64,000 bases of DNA. Source: a virus. The notes beneath the pieces were generated by a model that worked only from the letters and a program-made list of their open reading frames with translations, had not been told where the DNA came from and did not search any database. How positions within the stretch are numbered: position 1 is the stretch's first letter; each line of letters begins with the position of its first letter. Made by a program: the position numbers and the translations under genes. This document shows, in pieces, positions 30,397-51,266 of the stretch. The stretch is from IMG/VR virus record IMGVR_UViG_3300017971_002536, positions 1 through 64,000 of that record. One strand, written 5' to 3'.

Positions 30397-31827
30397 TTAT
30401 TCTAAATCAAAGAACTTGTTTGGTTCTTCTTTGTTTGTTATTGTTTTGTTTGGTACAAACGGACGAATAGATGTTTTCACGTCCTTACATAGTTCCTCAT
30501 ATTTCTTCGTGTCGCCATGAATGAAATACTTTGTGTACTTCGAATTTGGATCATCCTTGACCCCTTGTTGTATCAACCAACGACGGGCAAATTGATATGA
30601 AGAATTTTCACTCATAACTTGTGATGTCTGATCTAATATTTCCCTCTTTTCGCCTATACCATTGAGAATATAATAAATCCACTCACGACCATATTTTGAA
30701 TCTTGAATCTTCTTGGATAAAACCTCTTTCATCGCTCGATGTAAATTCTCTCTGAAAGTCCTTTCAAAATCTTTCAATTTCCAATCAAATGTTTTAGGTA
30801 ATTTCTTTAGTTTCTCTAAAAACTCGTCTTTTGTCTTAAAAAAGAATGGATAATCCTCTCCCAATATTCTCTCTAAAGTGGGATGACGGTAAACTAAGAC
30901 AGGTTTACCAAGATTAACTCCATCTTGTGCTGATAAGTTCCATGTTGCATAACCATTTACAAAACACATAGATGCTTCACTATTCTCTAATAAATATCTA
31001 TATTGTGTAAATTTCAAATTTTTGGCGACAAATTCCTTGTCAGCAGTTACATCTGTACACCAAACAATGTATTCTCCACTATCTACAAGTTCCTTTGTGT
31101 AATCCATCATCATATTGATTCCAGTTGACTTGTTCCAACGATGATTGAATACCAAAATCTTTTTGTCAGGAAGTTGAATAGGCTCAGCTTTCGGAAAATC
31201 CCCAGCAGCCAGAGGCATCAACTCCATCTTGTCTTTCAAATTTTTAAGATTTAAATCAACCGTCTTTCCCTTCTTGAAGTTCCTTTCAAAATAATCAGGA
31301 GCTTCGGGTATGTGAAAGAATGCTTTATCCGCCATATTGATTCCCTCAAGTTGTCTCATAAATCCATGTGGAACCTGAGTTGAGCCTCTCGATTGTGGAT
31401 TGTCTACCCAATGAAAGAATAAAAATCGATTCACTAATTCACCATATCGTTTTTCACTCAATCCTATCAATATGTTATACATTAATTCAGGTTGATGATT
31501 AAATACAAAATCAAAATCAGTCAACTTCATATCGATATTCTTACGAAAACCCATTGAATCAAAATGTGACCTATTTACAACGGCGTTTCTCGTATAATTC
31601 AATGGAATATATGAAACATTCTTTCTCTTATCAAATCCTACTAACTTGTTTTTCAGGGGAACTGTTACATAATGGTGACACATCGGTAAGTAATTGATTG
31701 TCATATTCAATACTTTATAGTTTGAATCACTTTCATGTAGAAATGTTCCAGCTTTATCCGTTCTAACAGGAGCATTATAATGTAATATCCTGAGACCGTA
31801 TAACGGATGATCTATATATTCGTTCAT
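30397..31827 (-). CDS. GT-B glycosyltransferase, candidate DNA-modifying; paralog of 38642-40147
   Basis: DFVFNHQPE, FFHWVD, VFNHRWN..TG, YATWNLSAQDG; C-terminal NKFFDLE. Confidence 0.7.
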   Translation of the reverse strand: MNEYIDHPLYGLRILHYNAPVRTDKAGTFLHESDSNYKVLNMTINYLPMCHHYVTVPLKNKLVGFDKRKNVSYIPLNYTRNAVVNRSHFDSMGFRKNIDMKLTDFDFVFNHQPELMYNILIGLSEKRYGELVNRFLFFHWVDNPQSRGSTQVPHGFMRQLEGINMADKAFFHIPEAPDYFERNFKKGKTVDLNLKNLKDKMELMPLAAGDFPKAEPIQLPDKKILVFNHRWNKSTGINMMMDYTKELVDSGEYIVWCTDVTADKEFVAKNLKFTQYRYLLENSEASMCFVNGYATWNLSAQDGVNLGKPVLVYRHPTLERILGEDYPFFFKTKDEFLEKLKKLPKTFDWKLKDFERTFRENLHRAMKEVLSKKIQDSKYGREWIYYILNGIGEKREILDQTSQVMSENSSYQFARRWLIQQGVKDDPNSKYTKYFIHGDTKKYEELCKDVKTSIRPFVPNKTITNKEEPNKFFDLE

Positions 31828-31875
31828 AAATAATCCTTTGATTAAAAGATTTAGATGTGTAACCTTTGATAATTT

Positions 31876-32124
31876 TTAATATGTTAATTCTTCAACTACT
31901 ATTTTGTGTGGCTTTTTCTTGACGTATTTTTCTATCATTTCTTTCGCTTGTTCTTTTGTTCCGAATTCACGAACTACTTGCGAATCATAATCCCACACTT
32001 TCCAGTAACGCCATTTCCAATTTCCTAACCAATTCTTTTTCCATTCTTGAATATAGTATATAACTTTTTCATTAATTTCATGATCATAATAAATTTCTTC
32101 AATTATACGAAACCTTTTTTCCAT
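31876..32124 (-). CDS. Hypothetical protein
   Basis: Trp-rich 82-aa ORF. Confidence 0.6.
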   Translation of the reverse strand: MEKRFRIIEEIYYDHEINEKVIYYIQEWKKNWLGNWKWRYWKVWDYDSQVVREFGTKEQAKEMIEKYVKKKPHKIVVEELTY

Positions 32125-32125
32125 T

Positions 32126-32578
32126 TTATTTTCCCCACTTTTTTTCTTTCACTAATCGACAAATTTTACCATAAACAGATAAATCTTGCCAAGCATCTTC
32201 AACAGATTCATTAGCAGCATGGAGTGAATCACGAACAAGAATAATGTTGAATAAACGTTGAATTTTGTCGTTCATTCGAAACCAGAGTCCTTTCAAACTA
32301 ATCATAATTTCTTTATCGTCTTTTAGTTGTGTTCCAACAGCAATATTTCCAGGACCATAATCATATTGTTTACGACAAAATGTAACAAATTCTTCTATCA
32401 TATATTCTTTAAATCTGCCAACCGTTTCCGGATACATTTCAGTTAATTTATTTATAATATCAATAGTTTCAACATCTACTTCTTGTAACAATTTTAATTC
32501 AAACACTACTTTTTCATTTGTAACTTGTGTAGCAGCAAAACCTACATTCCCCTCTTTTTCTTCTTTCTTTTTCGCCAT
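32126..32578 (-). CDS. DUF1599 / nucleotide modification-associated domain 1 protein
   Basis: RKQYDYG, RMNDKIQRL, ESVEDAWQDLSVYG. Confidence 0.8.
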   Translation of the reverse strand: MAKKKEEKEGNVGFAATQVTNEKVVFELKLLQEVDVETIDIINKLTEMYPETVGRFKEYMIEEFVTFCRKQYDYGPGNIAVGTQLKDDKEIMISLKGLWFRMNDKIQRLFNIILVRDSLHAANESVEDAWQDLSVYGKICRLVKEKKWGK

Positions 32579-32588
32579 AACATTTCTC

Positions 32589-33134
32589 CTATTTCAACAA
32601 TATTTTAATTTCTTCATCAGTATTACCATACATTCTACAAATTTCAACTAATCTCTCAGTCCACTCAGGTTTTGATAAAAAGATTGTTATGTAGTTTATC
32701 GCCTCTCGTTGAGGCACTTCATAATATAAACTAATCAACTCAATCAATTCTTTATTATACTTCTTTTCCTTTTTCCCCTTTACCCACTTGAGAAATGTCC
32801 TACCCTTTGGAATAAAGTTGGCATATACCTTGTAAAGAGCCTCACTCGTCATATCAAAACTATATTGTTGTACAATGTTAGTAATAAATAACCATTCAGG
32901 ATTCATCGACAAATAACGATTTATCATATAAGTTGAAAAGGTTTTTTTGTCCACTTCCGTCATATTGTCAAAATACTTTGGATCATAAGGCTCTAAATAA
33001 ATAGCCTTTAAATGATCAAATAAACCCTTTCCCTTTATCTTCTCTTTCTTCTTTGGTTTTATGAGAATTTCTTCCTTTTCAGGTTCCTCAAAATAACCCT
33101 CAGATTCAAAAAATTTGTTCGATAATTTACTCAA
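32589..33134 (-). CDS. Clamp loader small subunit (gp62-like)
   Basis: LFDHL, YMINRYLSM, FLKWVK, YYEV..REA; next to gp44/gp45. Confidence 0.7.
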   Translation of the reverse strand: MSKLSNKFFESEGYFEEPEKEEILIKPKKKEKIKGKGLFDHLKAIYLEPYDPKYFDNMTEVDKKTFSTYMINRYLSMNPEWLFITNIVQQYSFDMTSEALYKVYANFIPKGRTFLKWVKGKKEKKYNKELIELISLYYEVPQREAINYITIFLSKPEWTERLVEICRMYGNTDEEIKILLK

Positions 33135-33447
33135 CGGTTTCTTCCTTACCTAAATCGCCATCTTCAACATCTTCTTTTGGTACAGCTTTTCCACCAAATT
33201 CATCAGGTATATAACCACAATTCGTACAAGAAAGAACTTGCATCGGAGCAAACATTTCTTTCCCGCTCGTATTTACCGGATTCACTGCACTAATTCTTTT
33301 TACCACTACTAAATTTTGAAACAAATGATGTCCACATTCACTACATACAAATGTTTCTAATGTAGAAGCATCAATGTTTAATTGTTGTGGTTGACCCATT
33401 TGTTGACCGGGATTTGGCCCACCGGCGGCTCCTGGAGTGTATTCCAT
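33127..33447 (-). CDS. Zn-finger phage protein
   Basis: CSEC..CTNC. Confidence 0.6.
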   Translation of the reverse strand: MEYTPGAAGGPNPGQQMGQPQQLNIDASTLETFVCSECGHHLFQNLVVVKRISAVNPVNTSGKEMFAPMQVLSCTNCGYIPDEFGGKAVPKEDVEDGDLGKEETVE

Positions 33448-33460
33448 AATAATTCTCCTT

Positions 33461-34393
33461 TTAAGATTGATCTTTTATGTTTATTAACTTTATCATCATA
33501 TCCATGAAATTTATTTCCTTGTCAACTACAAATGGATCACTCTTTACTCCATCTGCAATCGTCAATAAAGAATTCGCCACATTTGTTGGCGCATATTCGT
33601 CAATGTGATCATATAAAAATCGATAAACGTCCGAAAACTCATTTACGTGATTGTCGTTAACTAATTGTCGTATATTAGTAAATACTGCCCGTTTATCTTT
33701 TTCCTTTAATATCTCTAATAACTTTAATCGAAAATCCGATTCAATAATCTTGTGTCGATCTACTGCTAACTTTCCATCTATTGAATTTAATTGTGCGGAA
33801 TTGATAAGTTGACGTATATCAGGATAAGTAGATTCAACTAATACCTTTACATCCTTTGGATCATATTCAACTTTTTCTTCGCCCAAAATCTCGGCGACCC
33901 GGATCGCTACGTCCGCCCGTGACGGTGGGATAATCTCAAATATCTGACATCGAGACTGTATCGGAGCAATAATCTTCTCGTGATAATTACACGTCAATAT
34001 AAATCTCGTTGTCTTACTAAACTGTTCCATAACATTACGCAGGTTCGCTTGAGCATTAGGTGTCATATAATCAAACTCGTCCAATATAACTAACTTTAAA
34101 GGTTTAAATGACACACTACCAGCAAAAGGTTTTATCTTCACTCGTACTACATCTACTCCAGTTTCATCGGACGCATTGATGTAAATCGTATCACTATCAG
34201 TATTCTCAGCAATTACCTTAGCTAATGTTGTTTTACCTGTTCCTGCCTTTCCATAAAATAAAAGATGTGGCGGATCATTCTCTTTAATGTATTGTGTTAC
34301 CTTTTGTCTTACATGATCATTACCAACATAATTTTCTAATTTATGTGGGCGGTATTTCTCCGCCCATAACGTGTTTTCTTTCTTTTTCGCCAT
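33461..34393 (-). CDS. gp44: Clamp loader AAA+ subunit (gp44/RFC small)
   Basis: WAEKYRP, GKAGTGKTT, INASD, LDEFD, SRC. Confidence 0.95.
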   Translation of the reverse strand: MAKKKENTLWAEKYRPHKLENYVGNDHVRQKVTQYIKENDPPHLLFYGKAGTGKTTLAKVIAENTDSDTIYINASDETGVDVVRVKIKPFAGSVSFKPLKLVILDEFDYMTPNAQANLRNVMEQFSKTTRFILTCNYHEKIIAPIQSRCQIFEIIPPSRADVAIRVAEILGEEKVEYDPKDVKVLVESTYPDIRQLINSAQLNSIDGKLAVDRHKIIESDFRLKLLEILKEKDKRAVFTNIRQLVNDNHVNEFSDVYRFLYDHIDEYAPTNVANSLLTIADGVKSDPFVVDKEINFMDMMIKLINIKDQS

Positions 34394-34405: not shown

Positions 34406-35149
34406 TTAAGCGTCAGTTTCTGCTTCTACAAGATAATAATTTGCGGTGTAATCTCCATCCTCAATATGAATATACGCAAGTCCTTCATTACTTACTTGCA
34501 ATGTAGCGAGTTTAGCTCCCTTGTTCGCGGTAAGAATGTTTTTGAAGTACTCAGCATTAAAAGATATAGGCCTATCCATTGTAGTATCAGAAACACCCTC
34601 AATACCCATCGTAATTCTATTGGTATTTACTTGAGAATAACCTAATACAACTTTATGTGTTCCATCTTTATCTTTCAACATTGTAAAGATTTTTGTTTCA
34701 GATAACGCACCTTTAGCACGAATATATGTATCAACAAAATCTTTTGTCAAATTAAATGACCAATGAAACTCAGGAGTTTGTTTCAATCCTTTTGAACGTT
34801 GAACAACAGACAAATCAGATAACATATAAGTTACATCATTACTATTATCTACTAAATCAATCGAAACATATTTTGTTTCATCGTCCGCTTCAACTTTATT
34901 GAGATTTAAATTTATATCATCACTCAATACAGATAACATTCGAACTAATTGACTTGTAGTAAGAACACCGAGTTCAACTCCATCTTCAAAACCTACAAAA
35001 TTGTCCATTTTTACATCACCAATCATTGATTTGTCGCCAGTAATAAAACGAGTTAACAATGATCCTTCGGCAGTTTCCCATACGGTGGCTTCAATTTCTC
35101 CACCTAAATGATAACGACCAACAAAATCTAACAATCTTTCTTTTTCCAT
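34406..35149 (-). CDS. gp45: DNA polymerase sliding clamp (gp45-like)
   Basis: 247 aa, beta-rich; ISFNAEYF..LQVSNEGL..YYL; lies between clamp loader and polymerase. Confidence 0.75.
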   Translation of the reverse strand: MEKERLLDFVGRYHLGGEIEATVWETAEGSLLTRFITGDKSMIGDVKMDNFVGFEDGVELGVLTTSQLVRMLSVLSDDINLNLNKVEADDETKYVSIDLVDNSNDVTYMLSDLSVVQRSKGLKQTPEFHWSFNLTKDFVDTYIRAKGALSETKIFTMLKDKDGTHKVVLGYSQVNTNRITMGIEGVSDTTMDRPISFNAEYFKNILTANKGAKLATLQVSNEGLAYIHIEDGDYTANYYLVEAETDA

Positions 35150-35163
35150 AACTTTCTCCTTGT

Positions 35164-37734
35164 TTATAGTTCAAAAAATTTATTTATTTTCTTTTGTTCA
35201 AATGAAGGCATTAACCATTCTAACGCAACATAAAAATCTTGTAATTTTGATTCTAATACCTTACTAAACATTTTATTCCTATCAACGTATGTTTCTATGA
35301 AGTTTACTATTTCAGGTGGATCATCATAACCTTTGAAAGCGATAGCATCCATCCCAAAACCATTTTCTTTCAAATATAACCATTTAACTTTTTCACTTGA
35401 CGCAATCGGTGGAAATTTTTTCTCTAACTTATAATATAATAGAAGTTCATTATAACATATAGCAGCTTTAACGTGTGCTGGAGTTCCTTTCACCCAATTA
35501 CCAAAAGGTTTATAACCATCTTTAATATTTAAACTACCGTTTGTTGATAAAGTTCCAAATTTATCTAAATTATGTACGGAAGTTGGCGTGGCTATATCTT
35601 CAGGCGTCACTGTCTTAACCATATTTTTAAACTCAACTATTTTACTATCTATACTTTCTTGTGTTTCGCCTTTTAAAATGTCTGTCAAAATCTCCTTGAG
35701 AAATGTCTTGAACGCAACAGGAAATGATGATCGTTTTACATCTAATCCCGTATACGCCATGTTGTCCTTTGGAACACCATTCTTATTTACAATCCAAAGC
35801 GCATAACGTTTTTTCGTTGTCCAAAATCCAGCTTGCGCAATCACTTCTTGTTTCAACTCAAACTTGTGTTCGTCTATATTTAAAAACTTCTTTCCATAAT
35901 AATCAAATGTTCCATTCATATAATCTTGAACTTCAGCAGTTATTCTTAAAATCGCTGACGACATTTGTTCAGGATCATTTATATCTACATCAGGATATTG
36001 TTTTTCAACTAATGGTTTGGCAGGAAAGAATACAGAATCAGTATCAATGTAAATACAATAATCTTTATCCTTTTCGCCAGTTATTTGATTGTAATAAAAA
36101 TTTCCTATCTTCTCAGTATATTGAATAAGATTAACTCCAGTAGTTGTTACCGCTTCCGCATTATCAATATCATAAAATCTAAATATTGGAAGTCCTAACA
36201 CTCCATATACTGAGTTTAACATAACCTTGGCTATTGTTCTACGTTGAGCATAATACTTTTCTTTTTCCTTGTTGCCTTTATTCCCATATTGAGTTTGTAA
36301 CTTATCAAAATTATCCTTGTCTTTGAACCATTCCTCTAAAATCTCAGGTATAATCCCTTTTTTGTCCACTCTATACATAACTCCATTCGCGGAAATGGCT
36401 AAACTATTCTCCCTCAAAATTTTGTCTAAATCATTACCATCCGCGTAAATATGATCACCTAAAAATTTTCCCTCATACTTTACATTCTTATCACTTATAT
36501 GTCTTTCAGCTTTCCAGCCTTCAATCTTACCAACTTTTGTTTCGGGTGAAATGTTCAAACTCATAACAATCGACGGATACAATGAAGTAAAATCTAAATC
36601 GTATATCCATTCATGACGACCTGTAAATGGTTCTTTTACATACGCACCACTAAACTTGTCCTCAGAATCCATGTGTTTTCTGTTTTCGGGATTCTTGTTT
36701 GGAGCAACTAAGTTCTTCCTTTTCATGTATGTCAACATCGCTCCCTCAATCCATCTACTTGAGAAAAATACATCTTCATATGGTACATGACCTTTATGAG
36801 CAATACCTTGTAACAAATCAATAAAGTTTAACTTTTGATCCAACTTTACAACCAACTTTGTATCAACTAAATTGTATTCAATAAACTTGTCTATATCGTC
36901 TCTCTTTAAATTATCTAAACTACCATCATATTTTATTTTTCCCTCGCCTAACTCATGACGAGAGACAGCGTCCAAGGCGTATGACGGTAACGCGGTGTAA
37001 GTGAACATCTTATACATAGCCAGATAATCTAATGAACTTACCCCAGCTATAAAATATCTCCCACGTCTCTCAAAATATTTTACTATGCCTAAAGGTGAAA
37101 GCCGTTTCGCCTCATAATCACCTAATACCCTTTTTAATCTCGCATATAAATAAGGAACGTCAAATCCATCTACATTCCATCCTGTAATAATTGTTGGATT
37201 TATCTCACTCCATTTATTTATGAACGCTGTTAGTAAATCTTCCTCTTTTGAAAATGGTATCGTTTCTTCATTTCCATGTCTCATTTGTTCCACAACTTTA
37301 TCTTCGTCTAAAACATATACATAATATTCATCAGTCTTTTGATCATAGAATGAAACAGATGTTATCTTATTATATGCTTTTTTGATGTCAGGTAACCCGT
37401 CCGTAACTTCAACTTCAATATCGAAGAACAATACCGTATGATCTTTTGAAATGTCGTCACTATCAGTATAAAGATCAACCAAAACCCTTGTTTCAACAGG
37501 AACATCAGATTCAAATATCTTACCACCGTCTACATCCCATTTAGCCCAACTTGTGACCTTACTAACCTTGTCGCCATAAATACTTCTTTTATCACCTTCT
37601 GAATCTAACCGGTACGCATAATTTTCAAAATCATATGTATCATAACCGCGTTTATCATCCCAAATGTGAACTATCGTTTTATTCCCGTCAAATACATCGC
37701 CTCGAATTCTTTCAATATACAAATTTTGATACAT
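35164..37734 (-). CDS. gp43: Family B DNA polymerase (gp43-like)
   Basis: FFDIE, GWNVDGFD, YNLVD, DFTSLYPS, KVMLNSVYG, YIDTDS, KKRYA; C-terminal QKKINKFF. Confidence 0.97.
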   Translation of the reverse strand: MYQNLYIERIRGDVFDGNKTIVHIWDDKRGYDTYDFENYAYRLDSEGDKRSIYGDKVSKVTSWAKWDVDGGKIFESDVPVETRVLVDLYTDSDDISKDHTVLFFDIEVEVTDGLPDIKKAYNKITSVSFYDQKTDEYYVYVLDEDKVVEQMRHGNEETIPFSKEEDLLTAFINKWSEINPTIITGWNVDGFDVPYLYARLKRVLGDYEAKRLSPLGIVKYFERRGRYFIAGVSSLDYLAMYKMFTYTALPSYALDAVSRHELGEGKIKYDGSLDNLKRDDIDKFIEYNLVDTKLVVKLDQKLNFIDLLQGIAHKGHVPYEDVFFSSRWIEGAMLTYMKRKNLVAPNKNPENRKHMDSEDKFSGAYVKEPFTGRHEWIYDLDFTSLYPSIVMSLNISPETKVGKIEGWKAERHISDKNVKYEGKFLGDHIYADGNDLDKILRENSLAISANGVMYRVDKKGIIPEILEEWFKDKDNFDKLQTQYGNKGNKEKEKYYAQRRTIAKVMLNSVYGVLGLPIFRFYDIDNAEAVTTTGVNLIQYTEKIGNFYYNQITGEKDKDYCIYIDTDSVFFPAKPLVEKQYPDVDINDPEQMSSAILRITAEVQDYMNGTFDYYGKKFLNIDEHKFELKQEVIAQAGFWTTKKRYALWIVNKNGVPKDNMAYTGLDVKRSSFPVAFKTFLKEILTDILKGETQESIDSKIVEFKNMVKTVTPEDIATPTSVHNLDKFGTLSTNGSLNIKDGYKPFGNWVKGTPAHVKAAICYNELLLYYKLEKKFPPIASSEKVKWLYLKENGFGMDAIAFKGYDDPPEIVNFIETYVDRNKMFSKVLESKLQDFYVALEWLMPSFEQKKINKFFEL

Positions 37735-37744: not shown

Positions 37745-38632
37745 CTAAAATCTTATCTCTTTTTTCTCTATTATATCTCTTAAATAAAGTCCATATTCAT
37801 TATTATATTGTAATGATAATTTACGTAATTGATCTTCATTAATATAACCCATTCGATAGGCGACTTCCTCAATACATCCTATTTTCAAACCTTGTCTTTC
37901 TTCCATCATTCTTATAAAATTACTTGAATCATTCAATGAATCTTGTGTACCAGTATCTAACCACGTAAAACCACGACCCATAACCTCAACATTTAATTTA
38001 TTCATTTGTAAATATATTTTGTTAATGTCCGTAATCTCAAGTTCCGCTCGACCAGACGGTCGAAGTCCTTTAGCATACTCAATAACATCATTATCATAAA
38101 AATATAATCCCGTCACCGCATAGTTGGATTTTGGTTCATTTGGTTTTTCTTCTAATGATTTCGCCTTTCCATATAAATCAAACTCAACTACTCCATATCT
38201 CTCAGGATCTTTTACATAATAACCAAATACTGTAGCTCCTTCGTTACGAGCATTCGCACGTGATAATAGAGCAACTAAATCATGACCATAAAATATGTTG
38301 TCGCCAAGTATCAAACAACAATCATCGTCACCTATAAATTCCTCTCCAATTATGAAGGCTTCGGCAATACCATTTGGTTTATCTTGTACTATATGTCTAA
38401 TGTATATTCCTAAATCATATCCATTCCATAATAAATCTTTGTATAAAGGAGCATCCCTCTCAGTTGTTATGAGTAATATTTCCTTGATTCCTGCTAACAT
38501 CAATGTAGATAATGGATAATACACCATCGGTTTATCATATACCGGTATGATTTGTTTACTTATTGATTTTGTCGCCGGATGGAGGCGAGTCCCAGCTCCA
38601 CCGGCTAAAATAATACCTTTTCTATTTATCAT
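37745..38632 (-). CDS. rmlA: Glucose-1-phosphate thymidylyltransferase
   Basis: [42 protein letters not shown]. Confidence 0.97.
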
Positions 38633-38641: not shown

Positions 38642-40147
38642 CTAAAAAAATTTGTTCTTACTCACTTTAACAAATTTTGGATCACGTTTCGGCTCACTTG
38701 CGTGGCTTCGATCAATCCATTTTGAATCATTCAATAACAATTCTATTTTCTCTACCACTTCCTCAGGTATCGAAAGTTTGACATCGGGATCATTTGGATC
38801 ATCCATTGCTCCCATCATTAAACACCACTTTCTAAGATGTTCCCACGAATTTGACAAATGTAAATCTCGATGTGTATTATGTAAAATGTTCTTTTTATAT
38901 CCATTATCATTCATTATGTGCCATAACCATTCTCGACCATATAAACGTTGTCCATCTTGTGAATGCGGTTCTTGTTTACGGCGACCTTCATATTTATCAA
39001 TAGCTTCTAACATCGCACCATGTAAATTAAACATAAAATTATCTTCATGTGGTGGCAATCCCCACTCAAAAGATTCAGGTAATTCTTTCAACTTCTTTAA
39101 AAATTCATCTTTTGTTTTGAAATAAAATGGATAATCTTTTCCAACTACTTCATCCATCATTGGATGATAATACGTTAATGATGGGCGACTCAAGGCGATC
39201 CCGTCTTGAACCGATAAATTCCACGTTCCATATGAATCTACAAAACATAATGTAGCATATGACTTCTCAACAAGATATTGATATTCTGCTCCACTTGGAA
39301 GATTTTGTACACGCATCCACTTTGGAGCTGGTTGTCCGGCTCTCGGTTTCTTCGCATCTTCATCAGTTACCCAAACAAGATACTCGTCTCTATCTAAATC
39401 TTTTGTGTAATCGATTAATCTTTTGATACCAGTTGTCGTATTCCAACGATGATTAAACAATAAGATTTTCTTGTCAGGAAGTGGAACAGGTTTTGACTTC
39501 TTTGTTGTTCCTATAAATCCACCTGCAAGAGGCATATACGTGATCTTTTCCCTTATCTTTTCATCTATGATTTCGCCAGTGATTCTTGGACGTTTTGGCG
39601 ACCAATTTGACTTGATGTAATCCAATGACGCATTACAATGAAAAAATGTCTTAGCAGATAAATCTATCGCTTCTATCTGTCTCCAAAATCCATCGGTGTA
39701 CGTCTCACTCGGTTTTGAAGCTGGTGAATCTACCCAGTGAAAAAATAAAAACGTGTTTACTGACGTTCCCATTCGATCACTCAATAAACCACTTATTACA
39801 TTATAAAATAACTCAGGTTGATGTAAAAATACAAAATCTAAATCATGTTTTCGCCAATCAAAATACTTTCTCAAAGCTTTATAATCAAAAAATCCACGAT
39901 TTGCTAAAACAGAAATGGGATACGGGAAATGAATCCAAGTTATATTGTCTTGTTGTACCACATCTTCAACTGTATTATTCGGTGGTACTAATACATAATG
40001 GTGACAATCAGGTAAAAACTTGATCGTCTTATACATAACTTTCCAATTTGAATCTCCATGATGTAACCACTTTGTCGCATTCCATCTAACTGGCGACATC
40101 ACATGAAGTATCCGTCGTCCATATAATTTTTTTCCTACTTCATCCAT
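38642..40147 (-). CDS. GT-B glycosyltransferase, candidate DNA-modifying; paralog of 30397-31827
   Basis: DFVFLHQPE, FFHWVD, LFNHRWN..TG, YGTWNLSVQDG; C-terminal KNKFF. Confidence 0.7.
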   Translation of the reverse strand: MDEVGKKLYGRRILHVMSPVRWNATKWLHHGDSNWKVMYKTIKFLPDCHHYVLVPPNNTVEDVVQQDNITWIHFPYPISVLANRGFFDYKALRKYFDWRKHDLDFVFLHQPELFYNVISGLLSDRMGTSVNTFLFFHWVDSPASKPSETYTDGFWRQIEAIDLSAKTFFHCNASLDYIKSNWSPKRPRITGEIIDEKIREKITYMPLAGGFIGTTKKSKPVPLPDKKILLFNHRWNTTTGIKRLIDYTKDLDRDEYLVWVTDEDAKKPRAGQPAPKWMRVQNLPSGAEYQYLVEKSYATLCFVDSYGTWNLSVQDGIALSRPSLTYYHPMMDEVVGKDYPFYFKTKDEFLKKLKELPESFEWGLPPHEDNFMFNLHGAMLEAIDKYEGRRKQEPHSQDGQRLYGREWLWHIMNDNGYKKNILHNTHRDLHLSNSWEHLRKWCLMMGAMDDPNDPDVKLSIPEEVVEKIELLLNDSKWIDRSHASEPKRDPKFVKVSKNKFF

Positions 40148-41171
40148 TTAAATTCTCCATTAATTTTTCTAACCATATTTCAGGTGAATACATTTGTTTA
40201 ACTATTTTTTGTTGTTTTTCAACAATCTTTATCTTTTCATCTTCGTTTTCCATATAATAATTTAGTTTGTCGCCCAACTCGTCTAAATCATCATATAATA
40301 ACTCGTCAATCATATACTCTTGATAACAAGTTTTGTCGTTTCTTGGACACAAATAACATAATCCGGCGAAAATTCCCTCTATAACACCATATCCAAATGT
40401 ATCATGTTCTGCAAATGAAATCCCAAATCCACAATTTTTGAGATTTTGCTGATATAACGCTTCGTTGTTTTTTGTATCAACATATCTCGTTCCATATTTC
40501 ATAGGGAAATGACTTCCGTAACCTGATGGAAGTGTGAAAGGTAAACTCCATAAAATCTTTTGTCTCAATTCTTTTGGTAACTTATCCGCATACTCAGGAT
40601 TCTTTGACTTGTCTAATCGATGATTGTATATGATTGAATCACTTTTTCGAGGCGACCACATTTCTTGAAATACCGGAAGTCCTATCGTTTTTGTTGGATA
40701 TGGTAATACTTCGTCAAACCAAAATGTAGCTGAAAATATCTTTGTAAACTTCGTTGAATTTCGTACCTCAATTTCTTGATTTCTTTTTCGTTCTTCGTCG
40801 GTGATTCTTCTATTTCCGGGTTCGGTATCTAAAAATGATGATCCATGTATAAAACCATAAAACTCAACATAATCCGAAAATTGATCCATTACTTGAAATT
40901 CAAAATCGCCTACGTTTGTAAAAAATACTTTCGTAAACTTTCCTTCTCTAAGAAATTCTTCAAATTCTTTAATGTACATATCTTGTGAAACCCTTGACTT
41001 TTCCCACGATCCAAAAATAAAAGGTTTTTTACTTACGAATACCCTACTAAGAAAATTTGATAAATCTCTCGACCACTTTACTTCATAAAAATGTGGTATC
41101 AATAATACATCTTTTCTTACATAATCTTTTGTGAATTCATATGGATCATCTATATCAAAAAATTTACTCAT
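40140..41171 (-). CDS. GT-B glycosyltransferase (GTDC1/DUF3524-like), candidate nucleobase glycosyltransferase
   Basis: FIHGSS, YNHRLDKSKNPE, SFAEHDTFGYGVIEG..LCP; N-terminal MSKFFD. Confidence 0.7.
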   Translation of the reverse strand: MSKFFDIDDPYEFTKDYVRKDVLLIPHFYEVKWSRDLSNFLSRVFVSKKPFIFGSWEKSRVSQDMYIKEFEEFLREGKFTKVFFTNVGDFEFQVMDQFSDYVEFYGFIHGSSFLDTEPGNRRITDEERKRNQEIEVRNSTKFTKIFSATFWFDEVLPYPTKTIGLPVFQEMWSPRKSDSIIYNHRLDKSKNPEYADKLPKELRQKILWSLPFTLPSGYGSHFPMKYGTRYVDTKNNEALYQQNLKNCGFGISFAEHDTFGYGVIEGIFAGLCYLCPRNDKTCYQEYMIDELLYDDLDELGDKLNYYMENEDEKIKIVEKQQKIVKQMYSPEIWLEKLMENLNG

Positions 41172-41989
41172 AACATTTTCCCTAATTGACTTAAAAACCT
41201 CGGCCCACCTGGGCTGTGGAATATTGATGGTTGTGTATTATATAACTCATTTGTAACCTTTTTGTTCCTAAAATCAAAAATTAAATCGAATAATGTCGTG
41301 TGATGCTCAACAAACCTGCCAAACCGGGTTGCTAATTGTACGTTTTGGAATACTTTGTTTTCATAATCAATCTTTATTCCATACTTCCCACTCAAAAATA
41401 ATAAATGGAAAATAACTTGATCATGATACTCAGGTCGTTTTCCCGATAATAAGTTTCCATTTACTTTACTTGAAAATTTACCATCTTCATCTAAGTCTTT
41501 CGCCAGTTGGGCGAATAACTCGTTGTCCTTGTTCACTAACCTTTCTCTCATTTCTACCTGAGCATCAAACAATACATTCAAATCACTTACATAACCCATG
41601 TACATTCCACCATTTAAATAACGACCCTTGTAACCATGATCAGGAAATTTGTTGCCTAAACTATACCAAGCTGGAATACAAAAAATCTCGGAACTCCACA
41701 AAATACGTGTGTCATATTCTAAAAACTTTTTGATAATATTGTCAGGATAATCTAAAATGATCGTGTCACGAAAATCCATTATCACAACCAAATCACTATC
41801 ATCAAATCGCTGGAACGCTTTTCGGTACTCGTGTACTCGATTCCCAAAACTAAACTCGCCCATGTTTTGACCTAAAATATGTAAATCTAATCCAAACTTC
41901 TCACAACTTTCTAATAATGATCCACCAGCTAATTTTCCGACATATGTATGAATAGGCTCAGTTTCTACTGAACATACGTGTAACTTCAT
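41168..41989 (-). CDS. GT-A glycosyltransferase (PLOD/LH3 GT-domain-like)
   Basis: VIMDFRDT, WSSEIFC.P, YLNGGMYMG, HDQ, IDYENKVFQN, IFHSPG. Confidence 0.8.
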   Translation of the reverse strand: MKLHVCSVETEPIHTYVGKLAGGSLLESCEKFGLDLHILGQNMGEFSFGNRVHEYRKAFQRFDDSDLVVIMDFRDTIILDYPDNIIKKFLEYDTRILWSSEIFCIPAWYSLGNKFPDHGYKGRYLNGGMYMGYVSDLNVLFDAQVEMRERLVNKDNELFAQLAKDLDEDGKFSSKVNGNLLSGKRPEYHDQVIFHLLFLSGKYGIKIDYENKVFQNVQLATRFGRFVEHHTTLFDLIFDFRNKKVTNELYNTQPSIFHSPGGPRFLSQLGKML

Positions 41990-42330
41990 ATAATTTCCTT
42001 TGGAATTAATATAGATTTTTCCTTAGTCTTTACATAGATTTGTGAAACCACATTTAAAACTGATCTCATACCCATTTTGTTTGTCTCGTAAATCAAAACA
42101 TTTTCTTTCAGGGACGCTTCCTGAATGTCTTGTGGATAATCCTTCATACATGGTATAATGATAACAAGAGTTTTGTTGTATATTTTTAATAGATTAGCAA
42201 TATTCGTAAAGAAAGTGTCGCCCTTGTTTCCAAAGGCGACAAACCTCTCACAATCCTTGTTCTCTACAATAAACTTGTCTAACTCTCGATTCACATAACT
42301 TATTTCTTCATAATCAAAAAACTTTTTCAT
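41986..42330 (-). CDS. Hypothetical protein (weak resemblance to a fold-type II PLP-enzyme fragment)
   Basis: N-terminal MKKFFDY; FVAFGNKG..IANLL..TLVIIIP. Confidence 0.5.
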   Translation of the reverse strand: MKKFFDYEEISYVNRELDKFIVENKDCERFVAFGNKGDTFFTNIANLLKIYNKTLVIIIPCMKDYPQDIQEASLKENVLIYETNKMGMRSVLNVVSQIYVKTKEKSILIPKEII

Positions 42331-45060: not shown

Positions 45061-45639
45061 TTATTTAAATAATTTTTCCCAATCTTTTTTTAACTCTAAC
45101 TTATATTTATCTAATAACTTAGATGAAATACTATTAATGCAATATCCCTTTCTTTGTGGATTTTCTAATTCATCAACAGGAATTAAAGAAAAATTCCAAT
45201 TATTTATATTTTTACGAACTTCTTTTTTATCTCGTCCTTTATAGTGAATTAACGTAACCAAAACCGCATCAAATTCATCAATACTATATGGAGTATAACC
45301 ATTAAGTGAATTATTTACATTTTTATCAGAATTTCTCCTTGTATTTTCAAAACAAATTTGTCTTGAGTACGGAGTTTTACCATCAACTTGTCTCAACTTA
45401 CTTTGGATTTTTTTATATTTGAGATTTGTATATATATCAAAACCTGCACCATTACCATCATCATTTATAACATCACTTACAACATTATTTCCTAAATAAT
45501 ATTTTATCAAATCACATTGAATATACTCATTTGCTTCTGCAACAGTTTTTCCCCATTCTCTAAGACATTTTCTCAATACAAATCCATTTTCAATAAAATC
45601 TCTAACATCCTTATCAGTTATAATACTATTATCTAACAA
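45061..45639 (-). CDS. Putative PD-(D/E)XK-type (D..QxK) endonuclease
   Basis: GFDI..KIQSK.R, YSIDEFD; start reassigned to TTG 45639, just after GGAGAG, because the track start lies inside a terminator. Confidence 0.5.
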   Translation of the reverse strand: MLDNSIITDKDVRDFIENGFVLRKCLREWGKTVAEANEYIQCDLIKYYLGNNVVSDVINDDGNGAGFDIYTNLKYKKIQSKLRQVDGKTPYSRQICFENTRRNSDKNVNNSLNGYTPYSIDEFDAVLVTLIHYKGRDKKEVRKNINNWNFSLIPVDELENPQRKGYCINSISSKLLDKYKLELKKDWEKLFK

Positions 45640-45660
45640 ATTTCTCTCCAATCTTTTAAT

Positions 45661-45692
45661 AAAAAACCCATTCAATATTGAATGGGCTTTTT
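45661..45692 (-). terminator. Rho-independent terminator (probably bidirectional)
   Basis: Perfect palindrome cccattcaatattgaatggg (45667-45686) flanked by A6 and T5. Confidence 0.8.
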
Positions 45693-45701
45693 AATTTTTT
45701 A

Positions 45702-46073
45702 TTAGAACCAACGCATCAACGAAATCCGGCGATTGGCAGATTCCTTGTGACCTACAAAACGAGTTGTATGACCACCATCAAAACGTCTCTTTAAAGACAT
45801 TTTTTCGAAACCACTAATCATAGCAGCAAGAGTGAATAACTTTTTTAGTGTCGCCTTACGTCTTTCAATACGACCGGGATCAAGAATGGAAACAATATCT
45901 TCCAACATCTTGACGTTGGCTTCGGCGTTCCGGCGACCACACTCAGGACAATTATATGCTTTCGCACGTCCTACCATTACACCTATTGCGAAATGTTCGC
46001 CCTTTTCTATGCTAAAGGGAACGGTCACTTTATGACCACATTTGTATTCTACATCAACCATTGTTTTTGACAT
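45702..46073 (-). CDS. Early hypothetical protein with Zn-binding motif
   Basis: CGH..CPEC; directly downstream of a sigma70 promoter. Confidence 0.65.
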   Translation of the reverse strand: MSKTMVDVEYKCGHKVTVPFSIEKGEHFAIGVMVGRAKAYNCPECGRRNAEANVKMLEDIVSILDPGRIERRKATLKKLFTLAAMISGFEKMSLKRRFDGGHTTRFVGHKESANRRISLMRWF

Positions 46074-46931: not shown

Positions 46932-47324
46932 TTATAGGGAAAATCGTAAACTTACGGTGTAACCGCTTCGTTGTAACGTGTTGATGTTTAATATGACGGG
47001 CGTCCATGATATGATGTTATATACAATTAAAGCTAATCTTCGTTGTCCTACCGATGATGTAAAATTCTTTATTACCATTATTCCGAATGCAGATATGATC
47101 ACTTTCGTGGCGAATAACTGTGTCATACTGGGATGCGAGCCGTATAAAGGATTTACCTCTTTCATCCCATATGTATTTATCGCATGATTTGTTAAGCCGT
47201 AATCTAATACCTGCGCTATTACAAAAGTGGACGCTAACGTATAATCTACGGGCGTCCACTCCAATGAATCTTGACCAAAAATACAAATTGGTATCAATAA
47301 GAATATTATTAAACGGTGTGCCAT
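46932..47324 (-). CDS. Membrane protein (DUF5658-like)
   Basis: Signal peptide; LD..LT..G.KEVNPL; further TM helices. Confidence 0.6.
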   Translation of the reverse strand: MAHRLIIFLLIPICIFGQDSLEWTPVDYTLASTFVIAQVLDYGLTNHAINTYGMKEVNPLYGSHPSMTQLFATKVIISAFGIMVIKNFTSSVGQRRLALIVYNIISWTPVILNINTLQRSGYTVSLRFSL

Positions 47325-48265: not shown

Positions 48266-48450
48266 TTCTTTTCCTTATTCTTAAACTGAAAATGATATTC
48301 ATCTTCACCTTTATCAATCGTATCTATAATCCTTGATAAAAATTGAATGGGAGCAGTAGTTCCACCGGCCCAAGCAAGATTATAAACCGTTACTTCACTA
48401 CGAATATGTTGATATACATCGTCGTCAATTAATAAAGTAATTTTTTTCAA
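48262..48450 (-). CDS. Early hypothetical protein
   Basis: GGAG RBS, TTG start, downstream of promoter. Confidence 0.55.
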   Translation of the reverse strand: MKKITLLIDDDVYQHIRSEVTVYNLAWAGGTTAPIQFLSRIIDTIDKGEDEYHFQFKNKEKK

Positions 48451-48474
48451 TTAAAACTCCATTTCTTTGATATA

Positions 48475-48510
48475 AAGTTACGAAATAAAAATGTATTTGT
48501 CAACTGTTTT
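48475..48510 (-). promoter_or_regulatory. Early sigma70-type promoter
   Basis: AAAACAG-TTGACA(48503-48498)-17 nt ending TTTCG-TAACTT. Confidence 0.75.
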
Positions 48511-48518
48511 CTGATAAA

Positions 48519-48812
48519 TTATGAAGATAATGACGTTTTTTCAAATACTCTCCAATTATCACCATCAAAGATTGTTATAACATAATGATAATGTGGCGTT
48601 TTCTTCATATTACAATAACATTCATCCTGCCACTCCCGACCACCATTAATCTTTTTATATTCTAATGATAAGATTGTGTGAACTAAACCAAACGCACTTA
48701 TTGGATTTAAATGTTCAATAATTTCTGGCTCAAGATTTGTCCTACTCCTTATTAATTCTTTCGCCTTTTCATACTTTCTTTTTTCTTTTCCTAATACTTT
48801 TCTCACTACCAT
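48519..48812 (-). CDS. Hypothetical protein
   Basis: GGAGGGG RBS. Confidence 0.6.
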   Translation of the reverse strand: MVVRKVLGKEKRKYEKAKELIRSRTNLEPEIIEHLNPISAFGLVHTILSLEYKKINGGREWQDECYCNMKKTPHYHYVITIFDGDNWRVFEKTSLSS

Positions 48813-48892
48813 ATCCCCTCCGAAAAGTTGGTATGATTTTTGTACAATTATATGGTATAAAAACCATTCAATATAAATAGGAGAATAAAAAA

Positions 48893-49585
48893 ATGAGTAT
48901 CAAACTATTGTTTCTTATTGTGATAAGTCTACTCTTATCCTCTTGTTACACACACTTTCGTTACGTCTATACCGAAGAACCTGTAGACGAAGTTTACATT
49001 TATGATGTCAACTATGTTTACACTAATCTTTGGTATGACGATTTCTACTGGCGTTACGATGTCTCTAATTACTATTGTACATTTGGTTTATATTATTATT
49101 CGCCAGGGTACTATGGCTACCCTTACCACTATAAATATAAACCATACTATTATCATAAACGCCCGTATTATAAACGCCATTGGAAAAAACGCCGTCATAA
49201 TGTTGATAAAAACCCACGTTATAGACCAAAACGACACTTATTGATGGGAAAAACCAACATTAAAAAATCTCAAAAAAATGTCCTGCTAAACCGTAAAAAA
49301 TTCAAAAAAAGAAAGGTAATAGGACAAAAATCGAGACAGAATGTCCAGATAAAAAATCGTATCACGACAAAATCTCGTCAAAATGTCGAAATACGTAAAA
49401 AACGACAAAATAAACGTAATTATCACGACACACAAAAACGTGTCCACCGAACACCCTCGTTCAAAAAACAAGTCCAAAAAACGAGAAAAAATACCCACGT
49501 TCAAAAACGTAATAATTCGGCTTTCAAATCAAAAATTAATAAAAAATCTCAAAGAGCAAATGTTAAAAGAAAAGGGCGAAAATAA
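48893..49585 (+). CDS. Putative lipoprotein with Tyr-rich middle and very basic disordered tail
   Basis: AGGAG RBS; MSIKLLFLIVISLLLSSC lipobox; only credible plus-strand gene. Confidence 0.75.
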   Translation: MSIKLLFLIVISLLLSSCYTHFRYVYTEEPVDEVYIYDVNYVYTNLWYDDFYWRYDVSNYYCTFGLYYYSPGYYGYPYHYKYKPYYYHKRPYYKRHWKKRRHNVDKNPRYRPKRHLLMGKTNIKKSQKNVLLNRKKFKKRKVIGQKSRQNVQIKNRITTKSRQNVEIRKKRQNKRNYHDTQKRVHRTPSFKKQVQKTRKNTHVQKRNNSAFKSKINKKSQRANVKRKGRK

Positions 49586-49597
49586 TCGCCCTTTTTT
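49570..49597. terminator. Bidirectional terminator between convergent genes
   Basis: aaaa-gggcga-aaataa-tcgccc-tttttt. Confidence 0.8.
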
Positions 49598-49599
49598 AC

Positions 49600-50499
49600 T
49601 TATTTTTCTTTATTTTTCGCTAAATATTTCGGCGAATATCTAAGATAACATTGTGTCGCAGGCAAATCTACACTATAACCCTCACTATCTACTTTTATAA
49701 GTGCTGGTGTTTCTCTCGATGGATTTTTTGTCAATAAATCATTTATACGAGTAGAAATATGTGTCCATGGCTCAGCATCTGGTTCATATTCCATATGTTT
49801 TCTGTTGACTTCACTCAATAAATCTTTGTAGTGAATTTGTCCATATTCTTCAATGGTTTCTTTGATAAGAGAAACTTGAGAATACTCAGATTTATATGTA
49901 CTCGATCTTAATTCAGTTAAATCATTACTCTCAAACCAATTAAAAATACTAGCATTATTATCTAAATGTTTCATGAAAATTTCATGTAATTCTGGAAATG
50001 TAAAATAAAATGTAGAATATTCTTTTGCAACCACTAAGGCTTTTTCTTTTATAAAAAGTGTTCCGAGTTCTCCAAAATCCAAACGCTCTTTATAAACTTC
50101 TTTATCAAGAATACTTTTATATATAACAAGTTGTTCTTTATATAGATCACTACCTATTTTTACTTCTATATAAAAAATTCCATTACCATATTTTTTTGAC
50201 TTTATACGTAAAACAATATCAAGACGCCTATCATGTATTTCCTCTCCATCAGACGCATAAATAACTTCTTTTTTAGGTTCTTCTCTACTTACACTATATT
50301 CTATTTCATCATCCGAAAAATCATATTTTTTAGTCTTTTCACCTATTAGTGTAATTATTTCATCAGCAACCTTTGGATTATTATTAATATACAAACAAAC
50401 TCCACCAGTCACTTTAACCTCTTGACCACCACCAACTATATCTATCCAATATTTTTCTTGATCTTCCATCAGTGGATTTCTATTACAACGAATTTTCAT
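49600..50499 (-). CDS. PD-(D/E)XK nuclease (PDDEXK_4-like) with C-terminal possible winged helix
   Basis: RRLDIVL..FYIEVKI..EQL..Y; own early promoter. Confidence 0.7.
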   Translation of the reverse strand: MKIRCNRNPLMEDQEKYWIDIVGGGQEVKVTGGVCLYINNNPKVADEIITLIGEKTKKYDFSDDEIEYSVSREEPKKEVIYASDGEEIHDRRLDIVLRIKSKKYGNGIFYIEVKIGSDLYKEQLVIYKSILDKEVYKERLDFGELGTLFIKEKALVVAKEYSTFYFTFPELHEIFMKHLDNNASIFNWFESNDLTELRSSTYKSEYSQVSLIKETIEEYGQIHYKDLLSEVNRKHMEYEPDAEPWTHISTRINDLLTKNPSRETPALIKVDSEGYSVDLPATQCYLRYSPKYLAKNKEK

Positions 50500-50529
50500 T
50501 ATATAACCTTTCTTTATTTGTCTATTACT

Positions 50530-50565
50530 AATATACGAAATTTCAGAGTAAATGTCAACTGTTTT
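50530..50565 (-). promoter_or_regulatory. Early sigma70-type promoter
   Basis: AAAACAG-TTGACA(50558-50553)-17 nt ending TTTCG-TATATT(50535-50530). Confidence 0.85.
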
Positions 50566-50570
50566 TTTAA

Positions 50571-51266
50571 TTATTTTGACTTTAGAATAACTATAACTCG
50601 TCCAGTAGAACTTTCAATTATAACTACTTCATGAGTTTTCTCAAATTTTTTCTTCCAATCAATTAATACTTCAGTATGTCCAGGATCTGCTGCAAATGTT
50701 TCGTGTTTTGGAGTTGGATATGTGAACACACAATTTTTACATACTCTCATAATTTCATTAGCTGCTTGATCTTTTAGAGCCGGTGGAATGTGTTCGATTG
50801 TTTCAGTACACCAGCCCCAATCCCATTGATGATCTTCAAAATCTTTCATATCAGTTACATCCATAACATAATCAATTTTTGGACCTGGACGTAAATCTAA
50901 TGATTTATATATTTTTGTTCGTTTTCGTAAATTTCCTTTATACGGTACACTTAATCCAGCTCCAATATCAAGTATAGATTTAGCTTTTGTTTCTTCCGTC
51001 AAATGTATAGTTCTTATATAATCACGATTAAATTTATAATTACCATCTTCGCCAAAATATACAGGTGGAACATACCACAAATAATGACGTATCACTTCCT
51101 CGCCATTACGGTGATGATCAACTGCAGTTTCAGGAAAAATATATTCAAATGTTTCTTCCTCTTTTTTCGGCACGTACTTTAAACGTTGTCTTTTTGGTTC
51201 ATCAGCTACGTCTTCCGCAGCTTGACTATCAAAAAAATCATTCTTTTTCATTTTCAATCTGCCCAT
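50571..51266 (-). CDS. Class I SAM methyltransferase (Methyltransf_11-like)
   Basis: ILDIGAG, SLDL, CTETIEHI, FTYP; N-terminal KKNDFFDS. Confidence 0.85.
   Translation of the reverse strand: MGRLKMKKNDFFDSQAAEDVADEPKRQRLKYVPKKEEETFEYIFPETAVDHHRNGEEVIRHYLWYVPPVYFGEDGNYKFNRDYIRTIHLTEETKAKSILDIGAGLSVPYKGNLRKRTKIYKSLDLRPGPKIDYVMDVTDMKDFEDHQWDWGWCTETIEHIPPALKDQAANEIMRVCKNCVFTYPTPKHETFAADPGHTEVLIDWKKKFEKTHEVVIIESSTGRVIVILKSK

Follow-up and report, generated by a model that had tools for sequence, protein, structure and literature searches.

The principle that an enzyme can modify DNA while tethered to a sliding clamp is already known. In phage T4 the alpha-glucosyltransferase co-purifies with the clamp gp45 (PMC13216743; Sommer et al., 2004), and the T4 clamp loader's A subunit occupies the canonical clamp pocket (PMC3331839). 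In phages RB69, DLP3 and HY126, DNA is arabinosylated in a manner that depends on a ThyA-homologue 5-hydroxy-dCMP synthase (PMC13326640). Here we analyse the first 64 kb (hereafter the window) of a 168,383-bp IMG/VR viral record, IMGVR_UViG_3300017971_002536 (G000), with an estimated completeness of 78%. An earlier reading of positions 30,397 to 51,266 of the window (the original prediction) proposed that three glycosyltransferases (GTs) of the GT-B fold, a methyltransferase and an accessory protein ride the sliding clamp of this phage by means of a shared terminal peptide and add sugars to nascent DNA; it pointed to the binding of the T4 enzyme to gp45, which is indeed documented (PMC13216743). 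Our results support the notion that the shared peptide is a genuine docking tail under selection, of the kind found on the polymerase; the likeliest receptor is the clamp of PCNA-like fold encoded at 34406-35149. We give a probability of roughly 0.55 to the full reading, in which clamp-docked tails bring the GT-Bs and the methyltransferase to new DNA, which the GT-Bs most likely glycosylate. The part that concerns docking on the clamp appears well supported; that the tails bind the clamp we infer from sequences and models, and that DNA is the acceptor we infer more weakly.

The family B DNA polymerase (PolB) has the C-terminus QKKINKFFEL (encoded at 35167-35196) and is the sole carrier of a full PCNA-interacting protein (PIP) box, since its Q846-K-K-I-N-K-F-F fits the consensus Q-x-x-[ILM]-x-x-[FY]-[FY]. 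Related peptides are found at the C-termini of two GT-Bs, named here, like other genes, by their lower coordinate: GT 30397 ends with PNKFFDLE (NKFFDLE at 30400-30420) and GT 38642 with SKNKFF (NKFF at 38645-38656). At N-termini, the motif is carried by GT 40140 (MSKFFD, 41154-41171), by the open reading frame (ORF) 41986 (MKKFFD, 42313-42330), by an extension of the clamp-loader A subunit that begins at a TTG codon (SKLSNKFFE, with NKFFE at 33105-33119), and by methyltransferase 50571, whose N-terminus reads MGRLKMKKNDFFD and bears KKNDFFD (51228-51248) on a 47-residue extension. Each terminus was re-read, and all seven motifs named in the original prediction were present. The same applies to its observation that the GTs of the glycan gene cluster at 1-26 kb have no terminal copy; the single copy there is an internal RKFFE in 12427.

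The whole record, with 183 ORFs, contains seven instances of [KD]FF[DE]; six are no more than 12 residues away from a protein terminus, where 0.6 would be expected (binomial p 3e-6). The proteome-wide search proposed for the motif thus came out in its favour. All 4 NKFF copies are terminal, as are 6 of the 11 KFF copies. Since the pattern was picked after the data had been seen, these p-values are generous; the comparative data given below are independent of them. The motif falls outside the folded part of the proteins: the tail of GT 38642 is disordered, and the structural matches of GT 40140 begin at about residue 19. Judging from the DNA, the start codons of the motif-bearing genes are plausible. 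The start of methyltransferase 50571 is backed by an AAAGGAG Shine-Dalgarno sequence, and in the sister contigs L062 and L063 the clamp-loader extension starts with ATG, MNKLSNKFFDSEGYFEE (MNKLSNKFFD).

Two further termini were considered and rejected. The terminal LNGFF of ORF 45061, absent from the list of the original prediction, depends on a TTG codon inside a terminator hairpin: at 45640-45700 (minus strand) the TTG "start" of ORF 45061-45675 sits in a GC stem followed by a T-run, AAAAAGCCCATTCAATATTGAATGGGTTTTTT, which is probably the terminator of gene 45702-46073, and the true start of 45061 is therefore further downstream. Sulfotransferase 3779 begins with MIKPVFFLGI, a hydrophobic stretch lacking the basic and acidic flank, which we assume to be linked to a nucleotide-binding strand. 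Outside the window, a gene at 112255-112917 of the record (minus strand; L089:8255-8917) encodes a 220-residue protein that ends with SISFEFFDDAG and has no Pfam, PHROG, PDB or phage match. Going by its terminus, it may be a further tail-bearing client.

If the tail has a function it should persist in relatives, and the alignments bear out this expectation of the original prediction. We collected 180 metagenomic relatives of the GT-B family and used the 117 near-full-length sequences (38-100% identity) for counting tails. Two aromatic residues are found among the last six in 105 of them, while the remaining conserved ORF tails in these loci show them in 10 of 413 cases (2.4%). The forms found in the family include KFF, KWW, SWF, KFW, GFF, TWF and EFF, and most exceptions are the near variants MF, FM and LF. 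When about 120 conserved ORF families from 78 viral loci were screened without bias, only GT-B (95% of distinct tails) and PolB (88%; 23 of 26 distinct tails end in an aromatic pair) stood out, and every other large family had 0% aromatic-pair tails. Orthologues of GT 30397 in other clades end with SIKFFEL, EVSWF or KHDFF, and homologues of GT 40140 begin with MNNFFDVDD, MKDFFG or MSKTFESE. Across these 78 IMG/VR loci, the GT-B gene is located within or next to the operon PolB - clamp - gp44 - zinc-ribbon - gp62 - Nmad1, in the company of PolB in 51 loci, the gp44-like ATPase in 50, the clamp in 43 and clamp-loader A in 51. In 43 loci the clamp gene retains its place between the genes of PolB and of the clamp loader. 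Two GT-B paralogues flank the replisome core in several clades, and in one clade a copy is inserted between clamp and gp44.

The tails also come in what may be called dialects. In a clade with tryptophan tails (the W clade), PolB ends with NENAWF or ENSWF, the two GT-B paralogues with DDSWF and EVSWF, and the methyltransferase with KKAWTFT. In phenylalanine (FF) clades, PolB ends with SQFFGF or EKFFSF, the GT with SNKFF and the methyltransferase with NKFFSFD or DKFFKF. Elsewhere, PolB KKFAEFFDF is paired with GT KKFSEFFT; PolB STLEDFFG with GT STLSKFMS and a Mom-like protein ending STLDKFYN; and GT NDNFW with a DNA methyltransferase ending NSNFWE. The tail of the GT thus appears to change dialect together with that of the polymerase, consistently across five protein families. 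The clamp of the W clade is 27.7% identical to the window protein, compared to 38.3% in the F clades, while the corresponding values are 47.7% and 48.4% for PolB, 53.3% and 54.0% for gp44, and 38.3% and 40.4% for gp62. The GT of the W clade is as similar to the window GT as those of the F clades, and only the clamp is more diverged, which is the outcome expected from a change in the receptor pocket. In a separate subgroup with WW tails (L007, L040, L046 and L073; fragments 17-44% complete), PolB was not found on the contigs, and a GT-B ending NKWW or NQWW adjoins tail- or structural-like genes away from the replisome. There, a neighbouring 281-residue protein ends with NEWW or HNYW, and a 268-residue protein next to the GT-B ends with NDLFEELFGEKK, resembling the T4 clamp peptide SLDFLFG.

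The presumed receptor, 34406-35149, has no Pfam match and no PDB sequence match, even with a profile. Its AlphaFold2 (AF2) model, with a mean predicted local distance difference test (pLDDT) score of 93.7, matches yeast and human PCNA over the full length in Foldseek (template-modelling, TM, scores of 0.70-0.76), in agreement with its original designation as the clamp. That clamp-loader A binds the clamp is certain. The subunit scores 46.8 bits with PF16790 against a cut-off of 27, finds T4 gp62 by phmmer at 3.3e-8, and adjoins the gp44-like ATPase; it contains a family-wide N-terminal motif, KGLFDHL (33009-33029), in which F39 is nearly invariant (alignment A4). In the same alignment, the additional KFF/DFF extension is confined to the window and L002. 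No homologue of T4 gp55 was detectable among the G000 ORFs; the best match, ORF 121483-122172 (MKLDEGFFKDI), has an insignificant E of 0.17.

In the mechanism that we propose, PolB would grip the PCNA-like trimeric clamp via its C-terminal PIP box, and other proteins would bear a copied core of this peptide on a flexible tail at one terminus, made up of two aromatics with a basic or polar flank and, in many cases, an acidic residue. The tail bearers would be the GT-Bs 38642 and 30397, which we regard as ancient paralogues, the GT4-type GT 40140, methyltransferase 50571, and clamp-loader A, the latter with an extra copy. The tails would dock these enzymes in the free pockets of clamps on newly made DNA, and the docked enzymes would act on the DNA behind the fork, as T4 alpha-glucosyltransferase does with gp45 and DNMT1 with PCNA. 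The GT-Bs would most likely transfer a sugar from a nucleotide sugar to DNA, RmlA encoded next door being a possible, and in our view likely, supplier of the donor. The methyltransferase would then probably O-methylate the added sugar.

GT 38642 and GT 30397 had no match in Pfam, PHROG, NCBIfam or PDB sequences (profile search), none by tblastn against the 50,697 phage genomes of INPHARED, and no GT4 Pfam model above its gathering score; therefore their fold had to be predicted. The AF2 model of GT 38642 (pLDDT 91) consists of a GT4-like core (residues 7-387), a helical domain (388-480) and a disordered tail (481-501) along which pLDDT falls from 64 to 35. Its VIA matches are sucrose-phosphate synthase, BshA and MshA (Z 20-22, root-mean-square deviation 3.2-3.7 A over 317-347 residues), and all its nearest Atlas clusters are viral. 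The two proteins are paralogues of a new virus-only GT-B family. GT 40140 scores 23.1 bits with Glyco_trans_1_2 (PF13524), below the cut-off of 25, and its Atlas structure matches GT4 clusters at TM 0.74-0.82, with the first ~18 residues outside the fold. Folds and structural matches, together with the kinship of GT 30397 to GT 38642, agree with the assignment of all three proteins as GT-B enzymes. In the family alignment (A1), N310, Q314 and D315 are invariant and lie in the C-terminal, donor-side half; an E-x7-E donor-binding motif could not be read from this alignment alone. The GT-B acceptor-side N-domain has an isoelectric point of 9.07, with a family median of 7.96 and a window median of 6.2; this basic character weakly favours a DNA acceptor.

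The methyltransferase family shows the tail as well. Relatives of 50571 carry it at the C-terminus (KKAWTFT, NKFFSFD, DKFFKF), and P0126 retains the N-terminal KKNDFFD. In the window protein the motif is on a charged 47-residue N-terminal extension absent from relatives, and the C-terminal extension is gone, so that the position of the tail can, by all appearances, switch protein ends. Distant relatives of 50571 are C-terminally fused to GT4 domains (P0158, P0162-P0164, P0167, P0169 and P0193; 512-545 residues) that resemble the window proteins 24627 and 22309, which makes it more likely that 50571 methylates a sugar rather than a base. In sister phages, the same kind of tail is found on DNA-modifying enzymes. 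Two PF01555 DNA methylases (N6/N4) end with REKFFE and RKNKFF, three tandem homologues with KHEFF, KKFFEWK and KEFFDY, and a family resembling phage Mu Mom (PDB 8bv8, E 7.8e-11) with KSKTFFDI, ITLEEFMT or STLDKFYN. The window's own genome has no copy of these enzymes; through their shared tails they lend indirect support to DNA as the target.

Several results pull against the reading in which clamp-docked tails bring these enzymes to new DNA for glycosylation, and we have gathered them in this paragraph and the next. The original prediction had read the PolB terminus as a textbook PIP box and the other six as similar motifs. The textbook box is confined to PolB; what the other tails keep is a basic or polar flank with two aromatics. 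GT 38642 (VSKNKFF) and GT 30397 (EEPNKFFDLE) depart from the full consensus, without Q and without a hydrophobic residue at position -3, and 40140, 41986 and 50571 retain [KD]FF[DE] alone, which makes them PIP-like cores and non-canonical boxes. ORF 41986 has no Pfam or PHROG match and, among 5.8 billion proteins, no homologue but itself; it is an unproven candidate member of the system. The suggested complex prediction with the clamp trimer was positive for residues 460-501 of GT 38642 (0.60, against 0.26 for the best control), and it amounts to a weak pass, "weak support" being the verdict of the tool: of 80 solved complexes 58 pass its mark, as do 2 of 110 mismatched pairs, and the passes at or below 0.60 comprise 7 of the 80 solved complexes and both passing mismatches. 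The runs share at least 60% of contacts and the partner pLDDT is at least 51, and the pass may reflect memory of known structures, because PIP-PCNA complexes have been solved. The co-variation of tails comes from a handful of clades, with few independent events, in loci picked for containing the GT family. The weak pass and the incomplete PIP consensus of the GT tails would both be understandable if the tail bound another common hub, such as the gp32-like single-stranded-DNA-binding protein, the helicase or the phage ClpP, whose gene (29747-30385) is kept beside GT-B paralogue 2 in 16 loci, or if it were a degradation or localisation tag. We consider this quite improbable, because PolB has its textbook Q-x-x-I-x-x-F-F where gp43 of T4 and RB69 and the archaeal and eukaryotic PolBs bind their clamps, because the motif is also present on clamp-loader A, and because the extra divergence of the clade that went from F to W falls on the clamp. 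Alternatively, the motif could be a by-product of AT-rich composition, or a DNA or RNA signal at gene ends (T-runs such as AAATTTTTTGA), with no protein function. G+C content is 34.6% in the record, where residues K, F and N are common, all window copies have TTT-rich codons, and the terminal FF of ORF 45061 was a terminator artefact. Composition does not account for the terminal enrichment (p ~3e-6), for tails kept at 38-55% identity, some of them having phenylalanine replaced by tryptophan (TGG; WF, WW, FW), for the 2.4% of other conserved tails, or for dialects common to several families. The conservation and the W/F substitutions, as read from the homologues, effectively refute this explanation, and the chance that we leave it is negligible.

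The remaining contrary points concern the acceptor. Models for Thymidylat_synt (PF00303), ThyX (PF02511), Tet_JBP (PF12851), 2OG-FeII_Oxy_3 (PF13640), TGT (PF01702) and QueC (PF06508) matched nothing in G000 or in its closest 91%-complete relative, G006, and the sole ThyA found, in the relative G007, is canonical. No known route to a glycosylatable base was found, an absence that a 78%-complete record does not prove. Moreover, 11 of 49 testable 6-bp palindromes occur at less than 0.2 of expectation, compared to 0 of 38 in the T4 control; CAATTG, GATATC, ACATGT and GGTACC are absent altogether, and for CTAG the 168 kb contain 9 copies where 193 are expected. Such avoidance makes blanket base replacement or hypermodification unlikely; a modification, if there is one, would be partial, limited to certain sequences or novel in kind. 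Since the dTDP-sugar route of the 1-26 kb cluster is supplied by RmlA too, the GTs at 37-42 kb could be part of that glycan pathway, and 50571 is outside every DNA-methylase family. All this would fit a situation where the tails dock on the clamp and the GT-Bs do not glycosylate bases, the substrate being a replisome or virion protein, an intermediate of the nucleotide or nucleotide-sugar pool, or the glycan of the 1-26 kb cluster. The GT4 and GT2 genes without tails that accompany the module in relatives, and the methyltransferase domain fused to GT4 elsewhere, point the same way. We nevertheless judge a non-DNA acceptor unlikely. The other tail carriers of recognisable function are all DNA-acting (PolB, the clamp loader, N6/N4 methylases, Mom-like enzymes), known clamp clients work on DNA, the GT-B genes sit inside the replisome operon in every clade, and the acceptor domain is basic. 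If DNA is the acceptor, as we favour, it is tempting to speculate that these uncultured T4-like phages, a widespread aquatic group, glycosylate it from the clamp without any hydroxymethyl- or hydroxy-pyrimidine, through a new acceptor chemistry directed, for example, at a canonical base or the backbone, with the new GT-B, possibly followed by GT4 extension and O-methylation. That more specific version seems to us rather doubtful.

The genes discussed above belong to the replication core of an uncultured T4-like phage, a T4-type module that spans 28-57 kb of the window (Table 1), in a record where the minus strand holds nearly all genes and whose closest cultured relative by PolB is Microcystis phage Mel-JY01 (45% identity). 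The module encodes a PD-(D/E)XK nuclease, ClpP, a 5'-3' exonuclease and a MunI-like nuclease; a replisome of clamp-loader A, zinc-ribbon protein, gp44-like ATPase, clamp, PolB and DnaB-type helicase; a GT-B transferase, RmlA, three further transferases, DUF1599, dUTPase and a class II ribonucleotide reductase; and the methyltransferase, a RecA/UvsX-like protein and the gp32-like protein. The assignment of ORF 32126 to DUF1599 ("nucleotide modification associated domain 1", Nmad1), as originally made, stands through its homologues: 9 of 11 (38-56% identity) match PF07659, with a best E of 3.6e-8, and the window copy itself falls below threshold, a direct PF07659 search of G000 giving no match. 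The gene is present in 26 related loci, and the small zinc-ribbon gene in 42; nothing useful on Nmad1/DUF1599 was found in the open literature.

Table 1. Coordinates of the tail-bearing proteins and their neighbours in the window
Feature	Position	Strand	Basis or remark
ClpP protease	29747-30385	-	adjoins GT-B paralogue 2, kept in 16 loci
GT-B glycosyltransferase paralogue 2, 476 residues	30397-31827	-	44% identity to 38642 (P0081)
DUF1599/Nmad1 protein	32126-32578	-	PF07659 via homologues
Clamp-loader A subunit (gp62-like)	32589-33134	-	Pfam Phage_clamp_A (PF16790) 5e-12
Small zinc-ribbon protein	33127-33447	-	weak zinc-ribbon Pfam matches; between gp44-like and clamp-loader A genes
gp44-like AAA+ clamp-loader ATPase	33461-34393	-	Pfam AAA 1.8e-18, DNA_pol3_delta2 4e-11, weak Gp44_lid
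PCNA-like sliding clamp, 247 residues, presumed receptor of the tails	34406-35149	-	AF2 model and Foldseek
Family B DNA polymerase PolB, 856 residues	35164-37734	-	Pfam DNA_pol_B 1e-33, exo domain 2e-21
RmlA, glucose-1-phosphate thymidylyltransferase, without tail	37745-38632	-	TIGR01207 451 bits vs cut-off 361; NTP_transferase 2e-71
GT-B glycosyltransferase paralogue 1, 501 residues	38642-40147	-	AF2 fold; no sequence-family match
GT4-type GT-B glycosyltransferase, 343 residues	40140-41171	-	sub-threshold Pfam and Atlas structure
PLOD-type glycosyltransferase domain protein, same operon, without terminal motif	41168-41989	-	Pfam GT_PLOD 1.9e-20
Orphan ORF, 114 residues	41986-42330	-	starts MKKFFD
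Small class-I S-adenosylmethionine (SAM) methyltransferase	50571-51266	-	7/8 family members match Methyltransf_11/25, best 1.5e-5

Some neighbours deserve a mention in their own right. In the 5'-3' exonuclease family (window 53026-54069, minus strand) a C-terminal L-x-x-[FY] is kept (KLNTFA, TLQAFL, TLNKYA), and in the gp32-like family (56365-57165, minus strand) F-[DK]-[DEK]-[LM]-F (AFKKMFEN, AFDELFNR); from their sequences, these are possibly further, weaker docking peptides. A family A polymerase-like gene at 59919-61268 (minus strand; PF00476 1.5e-15) is a second polymerase beside PolB. The MunI-type restriction enzyme is full-length (54086-54685, minus strand; PF11407 2e-71) and lies in the replication operon without a methylase beside it; its site, CAATTG, has 0 occurrences in 168 kb against 30-53 expected. 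In the W-tail clade, a PfkB-family sugar kinase (L006:15941-16726) is encoded between gp44 and the zinc-ribbon gene in 14 loci and is another sugar-activation gene within the replisome module. Finally, in two phage clades the gene directly upstream of GT-B and PolB specifies a 918-residue TonB-dependent-receptor-like protein (Plug and CarboxypepD_reg; L006:7138-9894 and L044:1102-3867) that ends with GLTVNF, which is unusual for a phage gene.

If the tails work as proposed, they would provide a marker, readable from sequence only, for those enzymes of uncultured phages that work on replicating DNA, and in these loci the marker already flags DNA methylases, Mom-like enzymes and an unannotated GT-B family. 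In that case the polymerase-type tail would serve as a label distinguishing DNA-directed from other glycan enzymes in phage genomes. The puzzle is that sugar transferases seem to be wired into a replisome where no known route to a glycosylatable base was found. Clamp and tail dialects seem to change in step, which would make a natural system for studying hub-client co-evolution, with the clamp as a tool-belt. New DNA glycosylation enzymes would also be of interest for epigenetic sequencing tools and for phage escape from restriction.

No paper joining PIP box, bacteriophage, glycosyltransferase and sliding clamp was found in the open literature. The novelty lies in the GT-B family, in tail dialects that run across five enzyme families, and in the combination of these with no known acceptor pathway found. 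A close parallel is the T4 alpha-glucosyltransferase with gp45, likewise a phage GT-B enzyme on a sliding clamp, which in T4 modifies DNA after replication. The resemblance does not extend to sequence: the families of T4 alpha- and beta-glucosyltransferase (PF11440, PF09198) were not matched, and phmmer searches with a-gt and b-gt gave E >0.05 against all G000 ORFs. T4 alpha-glucosyltransferase ends with KEQFDIITK, which is no copy of the gp43 tail; T4 supplies hydroxymethylcytosine through gp42, and no such enzyme was found in G000; and the avoidance of palindromes, absent in T4, is present in the window phage. The GT4-type DNA arabinosyltransferases of RB69, DLP3 and HY126 (PDB 9iqz; PMC13326640) share the GT4-like GT-B fold and the adjoining sugar-activation genes, and 9iqz is among the Foldseek matches of GT 38642 (E 1e-8), no better than many generic GT4 enzymes. 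Unlike in those systems, a 5-hydroxy-dCMP synthase was not found here, and no clamp tail has been reported for those enzymes. As for the docking itself, the clamp peptides of T4 and RB69 (gp43 SLDFLFG, gp55 SLDFLYEAND and gp33) and the PIP clients of PCNA are also short flexible terminal peptides with a hydrophobic or aromatic pair, common to the polymerase and other clients, and the clamps there are likewise trimers of PCNA fold. An N-terminal LF motif is common to both clamp-loader A subunits, MSLFKDD in T4 gp62 and KGLFDHL here. Unlike in T4 and RB69, the proposed clients are GTs and a small SAM methyltransferase, joined in sister phages by DNA methylases and Mom-like enzymes, and transcription factors are not among them. 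Unlike in either system, only PolB fits Qxx[ILM]xxFF, the others having [NK][KD]FF[DE], and the motif may stand at either terminus. With respect to DNMT1 on PCNA and other PIP-tailed DNA methyltransferases, the window methyltransferase differs in not belonging to a DNA-methylase family and is more likely a sugar methylase; the likeness is in a clamp-docked enzyme that would mark new DNA at once, and the PF01555 methylases of sister phages bear just such a PolB-type tail.

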